Shown here: piece by piece, positions 18,573-52,207 of the stretch | Layout of the letters: the number at the start of each line of letters is the position of its first letter | How positions within the stretch are numbered: the stretch's first letter is position 1 | Program-made: the position numbers and the translations under genes | The notes under the pieces: model-generated | What the model saw: only the letters and a program-made list of their open reading frames with translations | Database searches by the model: none | What the model was told of the DNA's origin: nothing | Origin: an uncultured Woeseiaceae bacterium | GTDB lineage: Bacteria > Pseudomonadota > Gammaproteobacteria > Steroidobacterales > Woeseiaceae | NCBI GenBank assembly: GCA_964607425.1 | Contig: CAZSKQ010000001.1 | Coordinates: 27,784-91,783 of the forward strand | Length of the DNA: 64,000 nt | Direction of reading: 5' to 3'

Positions 18573-21002
18573 TCAATTACACCCGGTCTGGATATCGCCG
18601 CTCGCGCCACCCTGGATGTTCATGCACGTCGGCGCGGAGATCTTGTTGTCGCGCACGGTAAGATCGCTCGTGGCGCGCAGCTCGATGCCCGTACTGAGGG
18701 CGACGATGTCGTTGCTTTCAATGGTATGTCCGCGCATCCCCGAGGACACGATGCCGATGCGGGCGTCCCGAATCACGTTGTCGTAGATTCGCGCATTGAA
18801 GGCGTCGTCGTGGATCACGACGGCCTCACCGGGGCTGGACGCGGTAGGCTTAAAGCCTTCCATCAGCACGCCGGACACGACCACGTCGCGCGAATCCTTG
18901 ATGTCGACCGCGTTCTCCCGGTTGTGATGGAAGTAACCGCCGCCGATATAGACGCGCTCACAGCTACCCCGTGAAGCATCGCCACACTGGACCGAGTCGC
19001 CGGACACGTCATAAATCTCGGCGTTCAGTATCCATTTGTCGGATCCCATGGCCTTGATCCCGTGGAAGTCCTGCTCCCGTGCATCCTGGCGGTTGTCGCC
19101 GAAACCGTGGATGCTGCCGCGAATCCAGACGTTGAAGGTACCAAGGCCCGCCGCCGACGAATGGCCCGCGTCGGTACCGGGACCGGCCAGCTCCAGGTCG
19201 CGAATCACGCAGAAGTTGCAGTTGCTGGAGTTGAAGAACGGCCCGTTGCCGGAACCGGCATTGATCAGGCCGCCCTGCAGGATCACGTAGGTGCCGGAGA
19301 GCGAGAGCTTGGTGAAGCTCGCTCCCGACGCGTCGATCAGGCACGGATCGGCCTCGGTGCCGTTGCACGACAGGGAGTCGCTGCCGCGCTTGCCGGTGAT
19401 CGTCTGGTCGGCCGTGTAATCGGCCCATACGTCGAAGCCCAGCACGTCGGAGGGCTCCGGGATGCCCCGAAAAGCGGACTGTCCCGGCGGTATGCTGCCG
19501 CCACCGCTCGACGGCGGCGGATCGTCGTCCGGCGGCGGCTCATCCCCGCCGCCCGCGGCCGCTTCCGCGTACGCCTCATCGATCGTTGCGAGCAAGGCGG
19601 ATTCGGTGCCCGTCTTGTGGTGCGTGCCGGCTTTCCTGATGTCGGCCGGGATGCGAGGTGCCACGTAGTCGATACCGTCGTGCACCATGCTGATGCGCGC
19701 CGAGTTTCCGGAGGTGCCGCCGGCATCGGTCTCACCGGCCGGCCAGATATTGCCGTCGAAGAACCAGCTGCCGCCGGTGCCCTGGACGATGAAGGCGTCG
19801 TTCGGCCCGCCGCTCAGGCCGGAAACGTACAAGTAGGCATTCTGCTCCACGTTCGCCGACGGAGAACCGGTTCCAGGCGCCAGGTTCATGCCGGCGGCGC
19901 CGCCCTCGAACCAGCCCCAGCCGTAGATCACGTTCCCTACGAAGTCCACCTGGCGGGTATTGTAGCGAATGCGCGGCTGCCGCTCGTTCAGGCGAGCGTA
20001 CACGTTGCCGTAGATCGTCAGGCGCTCGCGCAGCCCGCTTTCCTGCGAGAAGTGCTGCCCCTGCACCGAGTCCATGATGAGGCTGTTGGACAACGTGACA
20101 TCGCTGACGTCGCCGTAGATATCGACGTTGCCGTCGCCGGACCCGATCATCGTCAGGTGGTCCAGCACTACCCGGGAAACGGGCGCGCCGCTGGAGCCGT
20201 CGAGCTCCCAGAGGTCGTTGCCCTCGACGGAGCCACCCTCCCCGATCGCGCGGATGTTGTTCACGATGATGTCGTGCACCGGCTTGCTGCTCCTGGCCTC
20301 GAGCACCAGCCGGCCTACGTTGGTCAGCGTAATGCCCGGCGCCGGCGCGGTCGCGCCGTCGATTGTCAGGTAGCTGGTACTGATCTGCAGGTCGCCGATG
20401 GGAATATTGCCCGCGACATCGAACACGATGTGGCGGCAGTCCTGGCTCACCGCATCGCGCAGCGTGCCGGCTCCCCCGCTGCCGGAAAGCGATGTGACCC
20501 TGTAAGTGGTCATGCCCGTGGGGCAGCTCATCGCTCCCTTCGTTACCGAGCCGAAGCCGAGGTAATCTGCCGCCGGCGCCGCGCCCTGGTCGGCGACGTC
20601 GATGGCGAATGCGTCAAGGGAATCCTCCGCGGCGCCGTCGCTGACCGAGATCACGATGTCCTCGTAGACGCCTTCGTCGCCGCTCCCCGGAACGCCTGAG
20701 AGCTTTCCCGAAGCCGCGTCGAATTCGGCCCACTCGGGCTTGTTTTGGACTGTAAAGGTGAGCGTATCCCCGTCCGCGTCGGAAGCGGCGGGAGCAAACA
20801 GGTACGCTTCGCCGATCGTGGCTTCGCCCGCCGGCGAGCCCGAAATCACCGGCGCTTCGTTGTCGTTGCCGCCCGGTATGCCCGGTGTGGGAGCCTGTGC
20901 TTCGTCGCTGTCGGGAGTAGTTCCTGACTTGCAGCCGCCGAGCAGGGCGGCGATGGCAATGATCGAAAGAGGCAGGCTGACGCGCGGTCGGGTCGTGGTC
21001 AT
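18573..21002 (-). CDS. Bimodular secreted lipoprotein: Ig/cadherin-like domain - PL1 pectate-lyase-like beta-helix - Pro-rich linker - second beta-helix module
   Basis: 809 aa. Lipobox LLGGC (Cys24). PVISGSP..DADGDTLTF..LSGVP Ig-like repeat. PL1-like region about residues 165-420 (GTLRDAV, IVFDV.G, LTIDG, RQPRIRYN). Linker GGGDEPPPDDDPPPSSGGG. C-terminal about 300 aa paralogous to 17354-18412. Confidence 0.8.
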   Translation of the reverse strand: MTTTRPRVSLPLSIIAIAALLGGCKSGTTPDSDEAQAPTPGIPGGNDNEAPVISGSPAGEATIGEAYLFAPAASDADGDTLTFTVQNKPEWAEFDAASGKLSGVPGSGDEGVYEDIVISVSDGAAEDSLDAFAIDVADQGAAPAADYLGFGSVTKGAMSCPTGMTTYRVTSLSGSGGAGTLRDAVSQDCRHIVFDVAGNIPIGDLQISTSYLTIDGATAPAPGITLTNVGRLVLEARSSKPVHDIIVNNIRAIGEGGSVEGNDLWELDGSSGAPVSRVVLDHLTMIGSGDGNVDIYGDVSDVTLSNSLIMDSVQGQHFSQESGLRERLTIYGNVYARLNERQPRIRYNTRQVDFVGNVIYGWGWFEGGAAGMNLAPGTGSPSANVEQNAYLYVSGLSGGPNDAFIVQGTGGSWFFDGNIWPAGETDAGGTSGNSARISMVHDGIDYVAPRIPADIRKAGTHHKTGTESALLATIDEAYAEAAAGGGDEPPPDDDPPPSSGGGSIPPGQSAFRGIPEPSDVLGFDVWADYTADQTITGKRGSDSLSCNGTEADPCLIDASGASFTKLSLSGTYVILQGGLINAGSGNGPFFNSSNCNFCVIRDLELAGPGTDAGHSSAAGLGTFNVWIRGSIHGFGDNRQDAREQDFHGIKAMGSDKWILNAEIYDVSGDSVQCGDASRGSCERVYIGGGYFHHNRENAVDIKDSRDVVVSGVLMEGFKPTASSPGEAVVIHDDAFNARIYDNVIRDARIGIVSSGMRGHTIESNDIVALSTGIELRATSDLTVRDNKISAPTCMNIQGGASGDIQTGCN

Positions 21003-21010
21003 CGTGAACT

Positions 21011-21052
21011 CCTCAAAGTCAGCGAAATGACATTCAAAGTCAGCGAAGTGAC
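21011..21052 (-). repeat. Tandem 21-bp direct repeat in the 5' leader, ending in the Shine-Dalgarno of the 809-aa gene
   Basis: Minus strand reads GTCACTTCGCTGACTTTGAAT then GTCATTTCGCTGACTTTGAGG (18/21 identical), then AGTTCACG-ATG. Confidence 0.8.
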
Positions 21053-21129
21053 GTTTTCGCCAGCGGGCCAGGAGGGATTACAGGAATGCCCAGCAACGCG
21101 AGGCCGGCGCGTGCGCGCCAGCCGAGGAG

Positions 21130-21222
21130 TTCTTGGCAACCCCGCTATCGTAGGTAATACGATTACCCGTAGACCGGAAGCTTTGCGTCCTCGCTTTTCA
21201 ACGAGTTTGCCTTTGTCAGGTG
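21130..21222 (-). promoter_or_regulatory. c-di-GMP-I (GEMM-I) riboswitch aptamer in the leader of the lyase-like lipoprotein operon
   Basis: Minus strand reads ACAAAGGCAAACUCGUUGAAAAGCGAGGACGCAAAGCUUCCGGUCUACGGGUAAUCGUAUUACCUACGAUAGCGGGGUUGCCAAG. It carries the GEMM-I blocks GGCAAAC, a 6-bp hairpin capped by GAAA, GACGCAAAGC, CCGG, a second hairpin (GGGUAAU/AUUACCU) and AGCGGGGUUnCC, in the same order and spacing as the Vibrio Vc2 aptamer. Confidence 0.8.
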
Positions 21223-21373
21223 TGTTCATTATTTTTTATTGTCCCCCTTATAGCAAGGCAGTAATGGCGTTTCTGCCGAACCAAAACACAATTCTGTGAA
21301 GTGGTTCATGCCGCCGTTTTAGTTAGCCGCCACGCGCGCCCTGGGGCACGGTGGCAGGCATTAGCGCGTCTTC

Positions 21374-21389
21374 TGCAACTTACGTGCCA
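21374..21389 (-). promoter_or_regulatory. Sigma-54 (-24/-12) promoter directed leftward
   Basis: Minus strand reads TGGCAC-GTAAG-TTGCA, an exact match to TGGCAC-N5-TTGCA with correct GG/GC spacing. It lies about 370 nt upstream of the ATG at 21002 and upstream of the riboswitch. Confidence 0.7.
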
Positions 21390-21520
21390 GGTCATTACGG
21401 GGACCTATAAGGGGCTGTTTTTCTTGCTTTTACTTTAGACCGCGCTGGCCTTATGTCAACCGCGCGCGTTCGCGGGGCGTCTGCGTTCGGCGACAGGTTG
21501 TTCCCGGCGCACTTCATACT

Positions 21521-21540
21521 TTTCATGCAACTTCATGAAA
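21521..21540. promoter_or_regulatory. Inverted repeat, candidate enhancer (UAS) for a sigma-54 activator
   Basis: TTTCATG-caactt-CATGAAA (7-6-7), centred about 145 bp upstream of the -24 element. Flanked by further ACTTCAT copies. Confidence 0.3.
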
Positions 21541-21839
21541 GCAACGCAGTTTGAGGCATGTCGCCAAACCGGCACAACGCAGGCACGGTCTCGACCTGCC
21601 GCGGCGGGAAAAGATCCACCTGCGCAAGCTGCGGGCGTGAAGTGTTGCACCTTTATTGCCGGCTGAAATGTGTATCATTCGTTGCGGCTGCCGCGTGGCG
21701 GTCTGGCGACAACGACAACAGGAACGAGCGAACTGCACGGACGGCCGACAAGCGATCTCCACGGCGACGCCGCATCAAGGCTAAGGCACCGCCGCCCTGT
21801 CGCCGTCGGCACCGGCTACTGACCCCCTGACGATTTTCA

Positions 21840-38759: not shown

Positions 38760-39899
38760 TCAGCCCAGATCCCCGGCGCGAATGAGCCGCGCGGCCGACG
38801 CGATACTCTCGAATCGCCCGAGGCCCCGGCTCTCGACCATATTTTCCAGCACTGACAACGACTTCATCGACAGGTTCTTCGGATGCCCCATGACGTGGCA
38901 CAGGCGCATGGGCGGGTCGCGGCGAGGCAGGCGTGCGAGCCCGGCCGCTTTTGGATGGTCGACCGACAGCTCCGCGACCCGGCTCGCACCGAGCAGCCGG
39001 CGCAAAATTTCCGGTTTGCCGATGCGCTTGCCGGCACCGTCGCCGAAGACCCCGTCCTGCCGGCCGGTGAGCCGGTCGCGGACCCGGTCCCAGTAGTAGC
39101 CCAAGGGCAGTTTCTGCGGCGTCACCGGGATTTCCAGGAACCGGCCGGTGTCGTTCGGCGCCAGGGGCGAATCTTCGAAACGCCACCATTCCCGGCGCGG
39201 GGCTCGCCGGAAGTCGAAGCCTTTCTCGTCGTCCCTCAACGAAGCGCCCGGCACCACGCTGCTGTCGACGTCGATACCGCATTGCAGCAACGGGCCGGCA
39301 ATGGATGAAAACGGCTCGACACAGAAACCGCCCGCCCGGTATGACGTGGGCGCCGTACCGCAGGTCTCACCGAGGAGCCCGGCGTAGCGCCGCACGATGT
39401 CGGCCGCCTCGTCCGCGGTGAACTGCTCGAGGCGGTAGCGCGTGTCCGCGAACCTCCATCGGCCTTCCACGACCTCTGTATCCTCCCAGTGCGGGTGGAT
39501 GTGCAGGCCGATGTCGTGGCCCGCGTCCGCGATCCCGCGAATATGGCGGCGGACGCGATCGAGATCGGCGGACAGCCGCGGGCAGGTCGGCGCGAGCTGC
39601 CGCATCCGCCAGAGCATGCCGGCATCGATGTAGAACGTTATGCGATAGCCGTGCCGCCGGGCGCTCCTGAGCAATGCCTCGCAGGGCTCGAACAGGCACC
39701 TTTCGAGCGTTCCGCTCTTGTGAAAGAAAACCTCGTAGTCCTGGCTGAGGATCAGGATCGTATCGCTTGAGATCACCGGTTCATCCCGCGCTGCCTGTCG
39801 CCCGCGGCTGCAGGAGCAGCCAGCGGCGTGGGGCGTCAATGCTAACGCAATCGCGGCCGGATTCCCGAGGTGCCCGTCACGGATGGGGGTGTGAGGCAT
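38760..39899 (-). CDS. Polysaccharide deacetylase-like protein (CE4 superfamily, divergent)
   Basis: Track ORF 38760..40136 overlaps the kinase gene. Trimmed to ATG 39899 (GTG 39776 also possible). ILILSQDYEVFF, ITFYIDAGML, GHDIGLHIHPHWED suggest a NodB-like metal site. Confidence 0.5.
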   Translation of the reverse strand: MPHTPIRDGHLGNPAAIALALTPHAAGCSCSRGRQAARDEPVISSDTILILSQDYEVFFHKSGTLERCLFEPCEALLRSARRHGYRITFYIDAGMLWRMRQLAPTCPRLSADLDRVRRHIRGIADAGHDIGLHIHPHWEDTEVVEGRWRFADTRYRLEQFTADEAADIVRRYAGLLGETCGTAPTSYRAGGFCVEPFSSIAGPLLQCGIDVDSSVVPGASLRDDEKGFDFRRAPRREWWRFEDSPLAPNDTGRFLEIPVTPQKLPLGYYWDRVRDRLTGRQDGVFGDGAGKRIGKPEILRRLLGASRVAELSVDHPKAAGLARLPRRDPPMRLCHVMGHPKNLSMKSLSVLENMVESRGLGRFESIASAARLIRAGDLG

Positions 39900-39918
39900 A
39901 CCGGCCCTGCCGTGGGTA

Positions 39919-39943
39919 TTCGCGCGCGCTGCGCGCTCCTGCA
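39919..39943 (-). repeat. REP-like element, single copy
   Basis: TTCGCGCGCGCTGCGCGCTCCTGCA, between the kinase stop and the deacetylase-like gene. Confidence 0.75.
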
Positions 39944-39969
39944 ACCGGGGGCGGGGCTTCTCGCCCGAG

Positions 39970-42015
39970 TCAGCGCTCGATGGGAAGCCGTATCGAAAAG
40001 GTCGTGCCGACGCCCGGCTCCGAACCGATCTCGAGCTGCCCGCCCAGGGTGCGGACGTATTCGCGGGCCTGGTAGGCGCCGATGCCCATGGCTTCGGATC
40101 CCTTGGTGCTGTCAAAGGGGCGGAACAGGCGCTCACGGATGAATTCCGCGCTCATCCCGCAGCCGGTGTCGGCGATCGTCACGTGCGCGACGCCGTCCTC
40201 GGGCTCCAGCGCCACCGTTATCCTGCCGCCGCTGCCGGTCGCATCCTGGGCGTTGCGCACGAGATGCTCGAAAACGTTGGTAAGCCGGTCCGGGTCGGCG
40301 CTCACCGTTATCGAGCCGTCCGCGACCCGCAGTTCCGGCACCGGTTGCCGCTGGTTGCTGCGTTCGACCGCCTGCCGCAGCGCCTCCCCGAGGTCCACCG
40401 GTTCCCGCACCGGCTCCTTGGAGCGGCTTGCGAGCTGCTCCATCAGGCGCTTCATGCGGGTAACCGAGTGCGCGATAGTCGAGATCGCGTCGTCGACGAA
40501 CTTCGGATTCTGGCGGAAGCGCTCCGCGTTCCTCACCACCAGCGACTGCTGTGCGACCAGGTTGCTGAGGTCGTGCATCAAAAAAGCCGTCAGCCGGTTA
40601 TAGGTGCCGAATTGCCGGGTTTCCGCCAATCGCCGATCGGCCTCCGCCTGGCTGATGTGCGTGGCCACATGCCGGCCGACGGTCCGCAGCAGGTCGTGGT
40701 CTTCGAAGTTGAGCGCCGGCACGACGGCAGGCTTACGCAGCAGGATGAAGCCGGACAGCGTGTCCCCGAGCAAAAGCGGCACGATCAGCCACCAGTCGCG
40801 GGCCGCCGCCAGCCACGGCTCGAGCTGCAACCCGTCGTAGCGCATGGGCTCGCGCGCCATCTCCTCGATGTCGATCGTCCATTGCCGATCCTGCAGGAAG
40901 CTCACCAGGCTCGAGTTCTCGTCGATCGGCGACACCGTCGGGACCTCGCTGCGCCATGAGGCGACCGGCAGGTACGGCTCACCGTCGCCCTCTCGTACCC
41001 ACACGATACCCCCGGGGCTGTTGACGATCTGCGCGACCGCCCGGATCGAGGTCGCCGGCACGTTATCGAGCCCGGACTCGGTCAGCGTACTGATGAAACG
41101 CAGCCATTCCCGCCGGTAGTCGTACTTGTACTGGAAGAACGTTTTCATCAGGAACACGCGCACCCGCGCGCGCGTCGACGCCGACACGGTCAGGACCGAC
41201 ACCAGCGCAACCGCCGCCACGATGAAAACGACGCCCGCGACCTCGCTCCACGAACCGCCGTACGTGGTGACGTAGTAATGCCCCATCACCGTCAGCACGA
41301 CGTAGATGCCGATGGCGGCGAGCGCAAAGGAATAGAACACGATCCGGCGCGGAAACTGCACCTCGAAGGACAGGTGGAAGGTGCGCCAGATACCGACCGC
41401 GAGCGGAGCCACGAACATGCCGTTCACGAAGCCGCGCGCTGCCCAGTACTCGCGTTCGCTGGTAGCGCCCGCGATCACGAGAACAAAGGGGATGAGGTCG
41501 AAAACGAACATTCCGGCGACCGCTACGCAGAAATAGCCGATCCCCGAGCGCGCATCGACGGGCGAGTTGCGCCAGATCTGCTCGACGGCGGAGAGAATCA
41601 GGATGCAGAGCAGGAAGCCGCAGCCGACCATGGCAACCAGCGGCATCGGATCGTCCGAGCGCACGACGTACCAGCCGAACGGCAGTGCGGCGCAGGCCAG
41701 GACGATAATGCCGTAGCGCGAGGCGACGCGTTCGGCGAGCCGGGAAGGATCGATCGCGCGCAGGGTGGCGAGGAGCGCGATGAGCCAGGCAATGTAGCGC
41801 AGGATCTCGACCAGCACCGTGGTGAGGGTCGCGCCGATATAACCGAGGCTCTGCAACGCAAGCACCGCTCCCCAAAGAACGGCCGCACCCGACGCGATCG
41901 CGATCAGTGGCGACTGGGGGCTGTTCTTCCAGCGGCTGAGCAGCAACGCCGTCAGGATCGCGAAGAGGATCATCGCGATCGCGTAGCCGATGGCGGCTAT
42001 TTCGTTCGTTTGCAT
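39970..42015 (-). CDS. prsK: PrsK-like (PEP-CTERM system type) sensor histidine kinase
   Basis: 681 aa. About 8 N-terminal TM segments, GAF-like middle, H-box FLMHDLSNLVAQQS, N/G boxes HLVRNAQDA, DTGCGM, GIGAYQAR, GGQLEIGSEPGVGTTFSIRLP. Confidence 0.75.
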   Translation of the reverse strand: MQTNEIAAIGYAIAMILFAILTALLLSRWKNSPQSPLIAIASGAAVLWGAVLALQSLGYIGATLTTVLVEILRYIAWLIALLATLRAIDPSRLAERVASRYGIIVLACAALPFGWYVVRSDDPMPLVAMVGCGFLLCILILSAVEQIWRNSPVDARSGIGYFCVAVAGMFVFDLIPFVLVIAGATSEREYWAARGFVNGMFVAPLAVGIWRTFHLSFEVQFPRRIVFYSFALAAIGIYVVLTVMGHYYVTTYGGSWSEVAGVVFIVAAVALVSVLTVSASTRARVRVFLMKTFFQYKYDYRREWLRFISTLTESGLDNVPATSIRAVAQIVNSPGGIVWVREGDGEPYLPVASWRSEVPTVSPIDENSSLVSFLQDRQWTIDIEEMAREPMRYDGLQLEPWLAAARDWWLIVPLLLGDTLSGFILLRKPAVVPALNFEDHDLLRTVGRHVATHISQAEADRRLAETRQFGTYNRLTAFLMHDLSNLVAQQSLVVRNAERFRQNPKFVDDAISTIAHSVTRMKRLMEQLASRSKEPVREPVDLGEALRQAVERSNQRQPVPELRVADGSITVSADPDRLTNVFEHLVRNAQDATGSGGRITVALEPEDGVAHVTIADTGCGMSAEFIRERLFRPFDSTKGSEAMGIGAYQAREYVRTLGGQLEIGSEPGVGTTFSIRLPIER

Positions 42016-51254: not shown

Positions 51255-52207
51255 CAGCGCATGGCTTCCATGAAATGCCGGGCTGTCTTGTTCAGTGCCG
51301 TTTGCATGTCAGTCACTGGCGACCATCCGAGGACACGACCCGTCTTGCTGATGTCTACCTGGAGGGAACTCACCAGGGGCTCCACCGCACGGTGCTTACC
51401 CAATAATGCGGCGCCGGCACGCATGAGCGCACCCGGAACCGGCGCGATCTTCGCCGGCTTGTGTAACGCGACGCCAATACGGCGCACCAGTTCGCTGGTG
51501 GATACATCATCGTCGTCGGACACTGTAAAGACCTCATTCGCGGCCGCGGGATTTACGGCGCAAGTAGCGATCAAGTCGATCAGGTTGTCGATGGCGACCA
51601 GGCTGCGCCTGTTTTTTGCAGAACCGAGCGGGACAGGCCAACCATTATAAATCCAGCGCATCAGCGCAAGAAAGTTGGCCTTTACACCGGGTCCGTAAAC
51701 AAGCGGCGGGCGAATCACGACCCATGCCATGTCGCTGTCTTGCGACAGCTCCTTCAGCCCGATCTCCGCCTCATGTTTCGATCTGCCGTATGCATCGGCG
51801 GGGGCCGGCACGTCGTCGGGCAAAAAGGGCCTTCCGGGTGCCGTAGACTCGCCGTTTACCTTGATCGAGCTCAGGAAAAGAAAACGTTTGACGCCGGCGC
51901 CCAGTGCCTGCCGGGCCAGGTTGAGCGTACCCCCGACATTGACTGCCTGAAACCTGGCCTCGGCATCTTCCTTGCCCCTCACATGTACGTGTGCAGCCGT
52001 GTGAATAACCAGCTCGATGCCGTTTAACGTCTCCGCCCAGGCGGTCGCCTGGTCGATGTCACCGGTTTCGACATACGTCACCCCGGCAACAGGATTCTCC
52101 TGCTTCCGTCGGCTAGCCGCGACCACCTGGTATCGTTCATCGTGGCCAAAGCGTTCAACGGCCGCCCGTCCGATAAATCCCGAGGCACCGGTGATGAGAA
52201 TCTTCAT
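51254..52207 (-). CDS. NAD-dependent nucleotide-sugar epimerase/dehydratase (SDR)
   Basis: 317 aa. MKILITGASGFIGR, YGRSK catalytic pair. Stop overlaps the next start by 1 nt (TGATG). Confidence 0.85.
   Translation of the reverse strand: MKILITGASGFIGRAAVERFGHDERYQVVAASRRKQENPVAGVTYVETGDIDQATAWAETLNGIELVIHTAAHVHVRGKEDAEARFQAVNVGGTLNLARQALGAGVKRFLFLSSIKVNGESTAPGRPFLPDDVPAPADAYGRSKHEAEIGLKELSQDSDMAWVVIRPPLVYGPGVKANFLALMRWIYNGWPVPLGSAKNRRSLVAIDNLIDLIATCAVNPAAANEVFTVSDDDDVSTSELVRRIGVALHKPAKIAPVPGALMRAGAALLGKHRAVEPLVSSLQVDISKTGRVLGWSPVTDMQTALNKTARHFMEAMR

Follow-up and report, generated by a model that had tools for sequence, protein, structure and literature searches.

We analysed a 64-kb window, the whole stretch of 64,000 nucleotides taken from contig CAZSKQ010000001.1 of an uncultured Woeseiaceae bacterium, for the architecture of a sigma-54 (RpoN) promoter element and a cyclic di-GMP (c-di-GMP) riboswitch that share one intergenic region. 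The source genome (G000) comprises 4.1 Mb in 355 contigs, is reported to be 98.8% complete and has 65% G+C, and it was compared with 40 relatives from the same genus, family and order. The sigma-54 site is held in a divergent intergenic region of 837 bp, flanked on one side by an amidotransferase gene of the XrtA/PEP-CTERM type and on the other by an operon whose first gene encodes an 809-amino-acid (aa) lipoprotein. This gene is followed by those for a paralogous beta-helix protein, two GT4 glycosyltransferases, a deacetylase and an adenylation enzyme. Riboswitch, promoter and 809-aa gene share one strand. The features that carry the argument are the following:

18573..21002, minus strand: leading gene of the operon, for the 809-aa lipoprotein (He_PIG Ig, pectate-lyase and beta-helix domains)
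21003..21130, minus strand: expression platform with a 21-nt tandem repeat and the Shine-Dalgarno sequence GAGGAG
21131..21220, minus strand: c-di-GMP-I-GGC aptamer, RF03167, 70.3 bits against a gathering score of 59
21221..21363, minus strand: leader of about 143 nt, from the predicted sigma-54 start to the aptamer, with two stable hairpins
21374..21389, minus strand: sigma-54 -24/-12 element TGGCACGTAAGTTGCA (TGGCAC-GTAAG-TTGCA), exact consensus, preceded by C
21478..21495, minus strand: proximal GlrR/QseF-type box TGTCGCCGAACGCAGACG, one mismatch, starting 106 nt upstream of TGGCAC
21559..21576, minus strand: distal GlrR/QseF-type box TGTGCCGGTTTGGCGACA, one mismatch, starting 187 nt upstream of TGGCAC
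from 21840, plus strand: XrtA/PEP-CTERM-type amidotransferase gene, TIGR03108

A first-pass annotation of this DNA had reported a perfect -24/-12 match at 21389-21374 on the minus strand, and the match was confirmed. In TGGCACGTAAGTTGCA the GG (21388-21387) and the GC (21376-21375) are exactly 10 bp apart, as sigma-54 promoters require. It is the sole exact TGGCAC-N5-TTGCW in the window; dinucleotide-shuffled versions of the window contained 0.04 such matches on average, with one match in 4 of 100 shuffles. The site also satisfies the extended consensus CTGGCACG-N4-TTGCA and reaches the maximum (19.6) of our scoring matrix, an approximate one after the Barrios 1999 compilation; scores of 19 or above are reached by only 22 sites genome-wide. 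Genome-wide there are 31 exact TGGCAC-N5-TTGCW sites, against about 3 expected from base composition, mostly just 5′ of genes and in the correct orientation, including one at a pilin gene behind pilS-pilR. RpoN is encoded in the genome (490 bits; cut-off 277), as are about 14 enhancer-binding proteins. From the position of the -12 GC (21376-21375), transcription is expected to start near 21363 (21363-21362 by the rule of about 12 nt downstream of GC, which was checked on Proteus glmY). The annotation had also described the promoter as stacked on top of the riboswitch, and here it has to be revised: the first base of the aptamer, 21220, lies 153 nt past the end of the promoter, and with a leader of about 143 nt in between, the promoter comes before the riboswitch rather than on top of it.

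When the intergenic region was compared with the 40 relatives by BLAST, only the aptamer was recovered, often in several copies per genome. A set of 100 distinct riboswitch copies from this genome and the relatives, each with at least 250 nt of upstream DNA, was then scanned for strong sigma-54 sites (score of at least 14, within 300 nt of the aptamer). We found such a site upstream of the aptamer and on its strand in 19 of the 100 copies (15 of the 19 scoring at least 18), antisense in 2 copies, and in none of 97 in the 300 nt downstream. The element lies 140-230 nt from the aptamer in these loci, and 169 nt in the window. All 18 aptamers checked at sigma-54-positive loci of relatives were above the Rfam gathering score, and most of the genes downstream of such loci begin with a lipoprotein signal. 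Alignment of the leaders yielded groups that are unrelated to one another, and the window's leader falls in none of them; in one orthologous group the -24 and -12 elements are constant and the spacer is variable. Judged by this bias in strand and distance, the pairing of a sigma-54 promoter with a c-di-GMP riboswitch is a recurrent, selected arrangement in the Woeseiaceae relatives, and recurrence together with canonical activator sites makes the window's element credible as a working promoter. A sigma-54 promoter upstream on the riboswitch's own strand implies that the operon is plausibly gated twice, at initiation and by c-di-GMP in cis. The architecture thus supports the double gating proposed in the first-pass annotation; the regulator that it named is not supported, as set out below. 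In the literature that we searched there was no description of sigma-54 coupled to a c-di-GMP riboswitch, and only false matches were returned.

The regions upstream of the riboswitch-linked sigma-54 promoters have a palindrome in common, CCTGTCGCC-N4-GGCGACAGG (TGTC-N10-GACA). Counted from the T of TGGCAC, the distal box of the relatives is found at 162-196 nt and the proximal box at 83-122 nt, and paired boxes are 79-81 or 65-68 bp apart. The window's two boxes, 81 bp apart at 187 and 106 nt, agree with these offsets, and the window thereby has candidate upstream activator sites at the distance usual for sigma-54 promoters, some 80-200 bp. The proximal box scored 17.5 bits with a matrix built without the window, which places it within the top 20 sites of the genome. 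Boxes with one mismatch occur at 0.26 per kb in the genome, and two of them within 260 nt were calculated at about 0.002. Among the sigma-54-positive riboswitch loci with enough flank, all 18 had at least one box (with at most one mismatch) and 15 had two, as against two boxes in only 2 of the 80 sigma-54-negative loci. Exact boxes were also seen 30-250 nt upstream of 10 of the 80 sigma-54-negative copies, where about 0.5 would be expected by our estimate (they include L011, L014, L086, L087, L090, L098, L104, L113 and C1:8728 of G000), and the box-binding regulator may act at other promoter types too. Elsewhere in the genome, a third promoter with two boxes and a sigma-54 site stands at C39:7509-7800 (L144), without a riboswitch, before a gene for a small secreted EF-hand-like protein. 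In the window itself, a box-like palindrome, CATGTCGCTGTCTTGCGACAGC (18.3 bits, 51728-51749), is intergenic in a second polysaccharide cluster of lower G+C, with no sigma-54 site nearby.

TGTC-N10-GACA is the published binding consensus of GlrR (also QseF or YfhA) at enterobacterial glmY, and the known targets of GlrR are small RNAs (PMC3045617). We found a gene for a GlrR-like regulator in this genome (C35:3070-4422); a small gene separates it from a histidine kinase gene further upstream. The regulator's best family is NF011695 GlrR (632 bits), it aligns over its full length with QseF of Proteus mirabilis at 58% identity, and the C-terminal helix-turn-helix (HTH) is near-identical in the two proteins (GNVSQAARLAKRNRTDFYKLLARHDL in the GlrR-like protein, GNVTQAARMAGRNRTEFYKLLSRHGL in QseF). 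The neighbouring kinase gave no specific family match. The glrR-like gene on C35 adjoins another promoter of the two-box/sigma-54 type. In enterobacteria the GlrK/GlrR two-component system is tied to the cell envelope, and rpoE is another known GlrR target. As a positive control, the Woeseiaceae-trained box matrix and the sigma-54 matrix were run on the glrR-homologue loci of named genomes. In Proteus, Xenorhabdus and another Enterobacterales genome a single place was flagged, and it lies upstream of qseE, with boxes of 17-21 bits starting 124, 187 and (mostly) about 219 nt before the sigma-54 site; in P. mirabilis, GlmY (RF00128, 137 bits) begins 12 nt past the sigma-54 element. The offsets at Proteus glmY (187 and 124 nt) and in the window (187 and 106 nt) are nearly equal, and it is mainly for this reason that the boxes were assigned to the GlrR orthologue. 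No such promoter unit was found within 6 kb of glrR in the named Woeseiaceae genomes (about 30 loci). In Methylophilaceae, Rhodocyclaceae, Herbaspirillum and one gammaproteobacterial metagenome-assembled genome, the stop codon of glrR is followed at about 150 nt, on the same strand, by a sigma-54 site with one or two boxes of the GlrR type (loci L186, L190, L192, L193, L195, L203, L201, L208 and L191), a hint that GlrR has another conserved target there. For the window, we consider it probable that a GlrR/QseF-type, RpoN-dependent promoter feeds the c-di-GMP riboswitch and the lipoprotein/exopolysaccharide (EPS) operon.

Several observations weigh against this assignment. To our knowledge, the known targets of GlrR are small RNAs and rpoE, and none is a riboswitch-led mRNA. 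The GlrR-like protein scores below the NCBIfam equivalog cut-off (632 against 763), and each of the window's boxes carries one mismatch. Single boxes are frequent between genes where no sigma-54 site is present; they might therefore be read by some other protein, or part of them might be hairpins. The window's promoter and leader region had no alignable orthologue by BLAST in the 40 relatives; the positional analogue in one of them (G012:C309) has a box and no sigma-54 site, and that in another (G015:C12) also has a different promoter. Finally, two sigma-70-like promoters in the region, listed below, could carry much of the transcription.

The leader and the riboswitch were characterized further. 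The leader folds at -52.4 kcal/mol (z = -3.4), and none of 200 shuffles was equally stable. Between the sigma-54 promoter and the aptamer no intrinsic terminator was found on the minus strand; the leader matched no Rfam family at E ≤ 0.1, GlmY/GlmZ gave no match, and the riboswitch was the only Rfam hit. Sigma-54-linked riboswitch copies typically have leaders of 125-215 nt, and a group of leaders of about 215 nt is conserved in several genomes (G000 C35, L060, L064, L045, L065, L075) and could be a further RNA element. Downstream of the aptamer, two 21-nt repeats in tandem (90% identical, 21013-21054) abut and enter the Shine-Dalgarno sequence of the 809-aa gene, whose ATG is at 21002. An anti-Shine-Dalgarno sequence, CTCCTC, could be read directly 3′ of the aptamer.

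Further features of the intergenic region, and the kinase gene that entered the original interpretation, are listed here:

21228..21256, minus strand: sigma-70-like promoter TTGCTA-17-AATAAT, 9/12, whose start would be at the 5′ end of the aptamer
21408..21420, minus strand: weak integration host factor (IHF)-like site AAACAGCCCCTTA, one mismatch to WATCARNNNNTTR, with an A-tract before it, between the proximal box and the promoter
21432..21459, minus strand: sigma-70-like promoter TTGACA-16-TAAAGT, 10/12, in tandem upstream of the sigma-54 element
21521..21540, minus strand: 7-6-7 inverted repeat TTTCATG-AAGTTG-CATGAAA, within the A+T-rich DNA that separates the two boxes
21646..21661, minus strand: second -24/-12-like site CGGCAATAAAGGTGCA (cGGCAa-N5-gTGCA), score 8.7
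39970..42015, minus strand (gene 42015-39970): PrsK gene, TIGR02916, 603 bits

The inverted repeat had been put forward as a candidate enhancer site. It is indeed present at 21540-21521; as an enhancer it found no support, since no other copy with at most one mismatch exists in the genome and none of 19 related promoter regions has a counterpart, and it was likewise rejected as a regulon motif. A+T-rich sequence between the boxes is seen at other loci too, and the repeat could possibly contribute to bending or bind a second regulator. The second -24/-12-like site, also pointed out originally, was judged a chance match: about 1,000 sites of the genome fall in the score bin of 8-9 that holds it, and it sits upstream of the enhancer boxes. 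The IHF consensus WATCARNNNNTTR was taken from PMC3045617. Sigma-70-like sites number three in the region against 0.2 expected in shuffles; as such promoters lie on the same strand, tandem promoters are likely, and sigma-54 may not be the sole route of expression.

The regulators originally suggested were PrsK and its sigma-54-dependent partner PrsR, and the kinase gene is at the locus as reported. No PrsR gene was found beside PrsK or elsewhere on the window's contig, and the only true PrsR of the genome (703 bits) is on contig C35; where PrsR would usually be, downstream of PrsK, there is an open reading frame (38760-40136, minus strand) of coding-like composition with no Pfam or NCBIfam match. 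According to the prediction of Haft et al. (2006), the PrsR site is a 17-nt motif whose last six bases are TTTACA, and its mean distance from the sigma-54 motif that follows it at PEP-CTERM genes is 63 nt (PMC1569441). In five relatives we recovered this box, TGTCGGA-N4-TTTACA, before PEP-CTERM genes; its TTTACA starts 67-70 nt upstream of TGGCAC. That PrsR activates the window's promoter under the local PrsK is an idea with several attractions: kinase and true PrsR are both encoded in the genome, the left half of the PrsR box (TGTCG) resembles a half-site of the TGTC-N10-GACA boxes, and in three genomes of the genus (G000, G004 and G012) the PrsR gene directly follows a unit of boxes, sigma-54 site, riboswitch and lipoprotein gene. 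A TTGACA hexamer, moreover, occupies the PrsR-box offset in the window, 70 nt upstream of TGGCAC; it stands there alone and is better read as the -35 of the sigma-70-like promoter. The PrsR box as a whole is absent, the best score at the window's promoter being -9.2 against 17-27 bits for true sites in relatives, and the window's boxes are 18 nt long against 17 nt for PrsR. Conversely, about 20 sigma-54 promoters of PEP-CTERM genes in relatives have no TGTC-N10-GACA box in the expected range. Four relatives, G027 (reported to be 100% complete), G010, G014 and G001, have boxes, sigma-54 site and riboswitch, and no PrsR above the cut-off; because they keep this promoter type, PrsR is unlikely as its activator. 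PrsR was therefore rejected, and we regard a functional promoter under PrsK and PrsR as improbable. To name PrsR as activator because a PrsK gene is nearby would be a tempting annotation shortcut, which is hereby corrected.

Instead, since the PrsR gene lies downstream of such units, PrsR may be a target of the box/sigma-54 system. On contig C35 the unit (C35:168-3045; L001, L145) begins with two boxes and a sigma-54 site (TGGCACGCTAGTTGCC), followed by about 200 nt of leader, a c-di-GMP-I-GGC riboswitch (66.8 bits), a lipoprotein gene and then PrsR. It converges on the operon of glrK-like, small and glrR-like genes, and PrsR is unlinked from PrsK; the order from riboswitch to PrsR is shared with G004 and G012. 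The genome's only canonical PrsR box with a sigma-54 promoter was found at C105:4100-4450, minus strand (L147), followed by about 240 nt of A+T-rich non-coding sequence with a strong intrinsic terminator at its end and then by an amidase-like gene, and may represent a PrsR-dependent small RNA. Neither PEP-CTERM domains (TIGR02595) nor XrtA (TIGR03109) were detected in the genome by regular expression and hidden Markov model searches, and EpsH (TIGR02602) gave one weak sub-threshold match and none above the cut-off. The 809-aa protein of the operon is a lipoprotein without a PEP-CTERM domain. PrsK and PrsR thus pass their cut-offs in an assembly in which no PEP-CTERM domain or exosortase was detected; several genomes of the same genus have both.

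Other explanations leave PrsR aside. The sigma-54 promoter may be functional with its boxes read by another enhancer-binding protein, or by a regulator of the riboswitch-linked family that is not an enhancer-binding protein. About 14 enhancer-binding proteins are available in the genome as alternative readers, exact single boxes precede sigma-54-negative riboswitch copies and occur in many intergenic regions, as described above, and the PilR-controlled pilin promoter has TGTC-rich partial matches. We nevertheless hold this to be unlikely, as the consensus, copy number and offsets of the boxes equal those of experimentally defined GlrR promoters, which our matrix cross-detects, and the HTH of GlrR is conserved. 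If the known GlrR targets are taken as the guide, the sigma-54 site might drive a separate, GlmY-like short RNA, namely the 143-nt leader, with the riboswitch mRNA arising from TTGCTA-17-AATAAT. The unusual stability of the leader and a sigma-70-like promoter that puts the start at the 5′ end of the aptamer would fit a separate RNA. No terminator interrupts the path from promoter to aptamer, however, and in 19 loci the sigma-54 site stays on the aptamer's strand and within a limited range of it although the leaders are unrelated between groups, so that we see this as very unlikely. It is also very unlikely that the sigma-54 match is due to chance or is a relic, with the operon transcribed from sigma-70 promoters only. 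Exact matches in 4 of 100 window shuffles, the three sigma-70-like sites and the lack of orthologous conservation of the promoter speak for it; the correct strand, the intergenic place, two boxes at canonical offsets and an architecture that recurs in relatives speak against it.

Under the preferred reading, a GlrR/QseF-type promoter ahead of the riboswitch, transcription would start near 21363 and would reach the lipoprotein/EPS operon by way of the structured leader (about 143 nt) and the riboswitch. Open complex formation would require an enhancer-binding protein at the two boxes, which are centred about 123 and 204 bp upstream of the predicted start, and looping of the DNA could be aided by the A+T-rich spacer and the possible IHF site. 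The likeliest activator to bind there would be the genome's own GlrR/QseF orthologue, acting with the GlrK/QseE-type kinase; the genes of both are on contig C35. Two inputs would then be needed for expression, a two-component signal and the c-di-GMP level read by the riboswitch, whose platform could mask the Shine-Dalgarno sequence. The sequence features, their recurrence in relatives and their agreement with known GlrR promoters are observations; the start site, RpoN dependence, GlrR binding and the sign of the riboswitch response are predictions.

We compared the locus with three known systems. The closest is the set of GlrR (QseF/YfhA) sigma-54 promoters of glmY/glmZ in Enterobacteriaceae (Reichenbach 2009; Gopel 2011, PMC3045617), which, like the window, combine a -24/-12 promoter with several TGTC-N10-GACA sites more than 100 bp upstream and nearby sigma-70 promoters; their A+T-rich IHF region may have a counterpart in the window's A+T-rich DNA and weak IHF-like site. 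A putative set of genes for a GlrK-type kinase, a small protein and GlrR is present in the window's genome. In the window, however, the transcript is predicted to be a riboswitch-bearing mRNA leader before lipoprotein/EPS genes, unlike the small RNAs GlmY and GlmZ. There are two boxes instead of three, the sigma-70-like promoters are in tandem and not overlapping, the promoter is not beside glrK, and the host is a Woeseia-like gammaproteobacterium and not one of the Enterobacteriaceae. With the PrsR or 'PEP-CTERM box' promoters (PMC1569441) the window shares a sigma-54 promoter, an EPS locus of XrtA type with PrsK and a long upstream non-coding region. It differs from them in having no 17-nt box ending in TTTACA, in the distance to the start codon (372 nt against about 71 nt), in a downstream lipoprotein without a PEP-CTERM domain and in a genome without a detected PEP-CTERM domain or exosortase. 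Leaders of the c-di-GMP-I (GEMM-I) type, for example Vc2 of Vibrio cholerae (RF01051/RF03167), have the same aptamer class and the same place in the 5′ untranslated region before surface or biofilm genes. Unlike those, the aptamer in the window and in about 19% of the relatives' copies comes after an enhancer-dependent promoter and a long leader. Each component (sigma-54 promoter, GlrR box, c-di-GMP riboswitch) is familiar by itself; their systematic coupling is undescribed in the literature that we searched.

A broader view is that in Woeseiaceae and their relatives GlrK/GlrR (QseE/QseF) has been rewired from GlmY/GlmZ to riboswitch-led genes for surface lipoproteins and EPS, forming a recurrent AND gate that stands above PrsR as the head of a cascade. 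We offer this tentatively, with slightly more doubt than belief. If true, it would be the first predicted GlrR/QseF regulon beyond the enterobacterial small-RNA and rpoE targets. The locus would then also be a natural case in which an enhancer-dependent promoter of very low basal activity is joined to a second-messenger riboswitch so that one operon needs both signals. Woeseiaceae rank among the most abundant bacteria of marine sediments, and the arrangement hints at what they may use to time the remodelling of their exopolysaccharide and surface lipoproteins.

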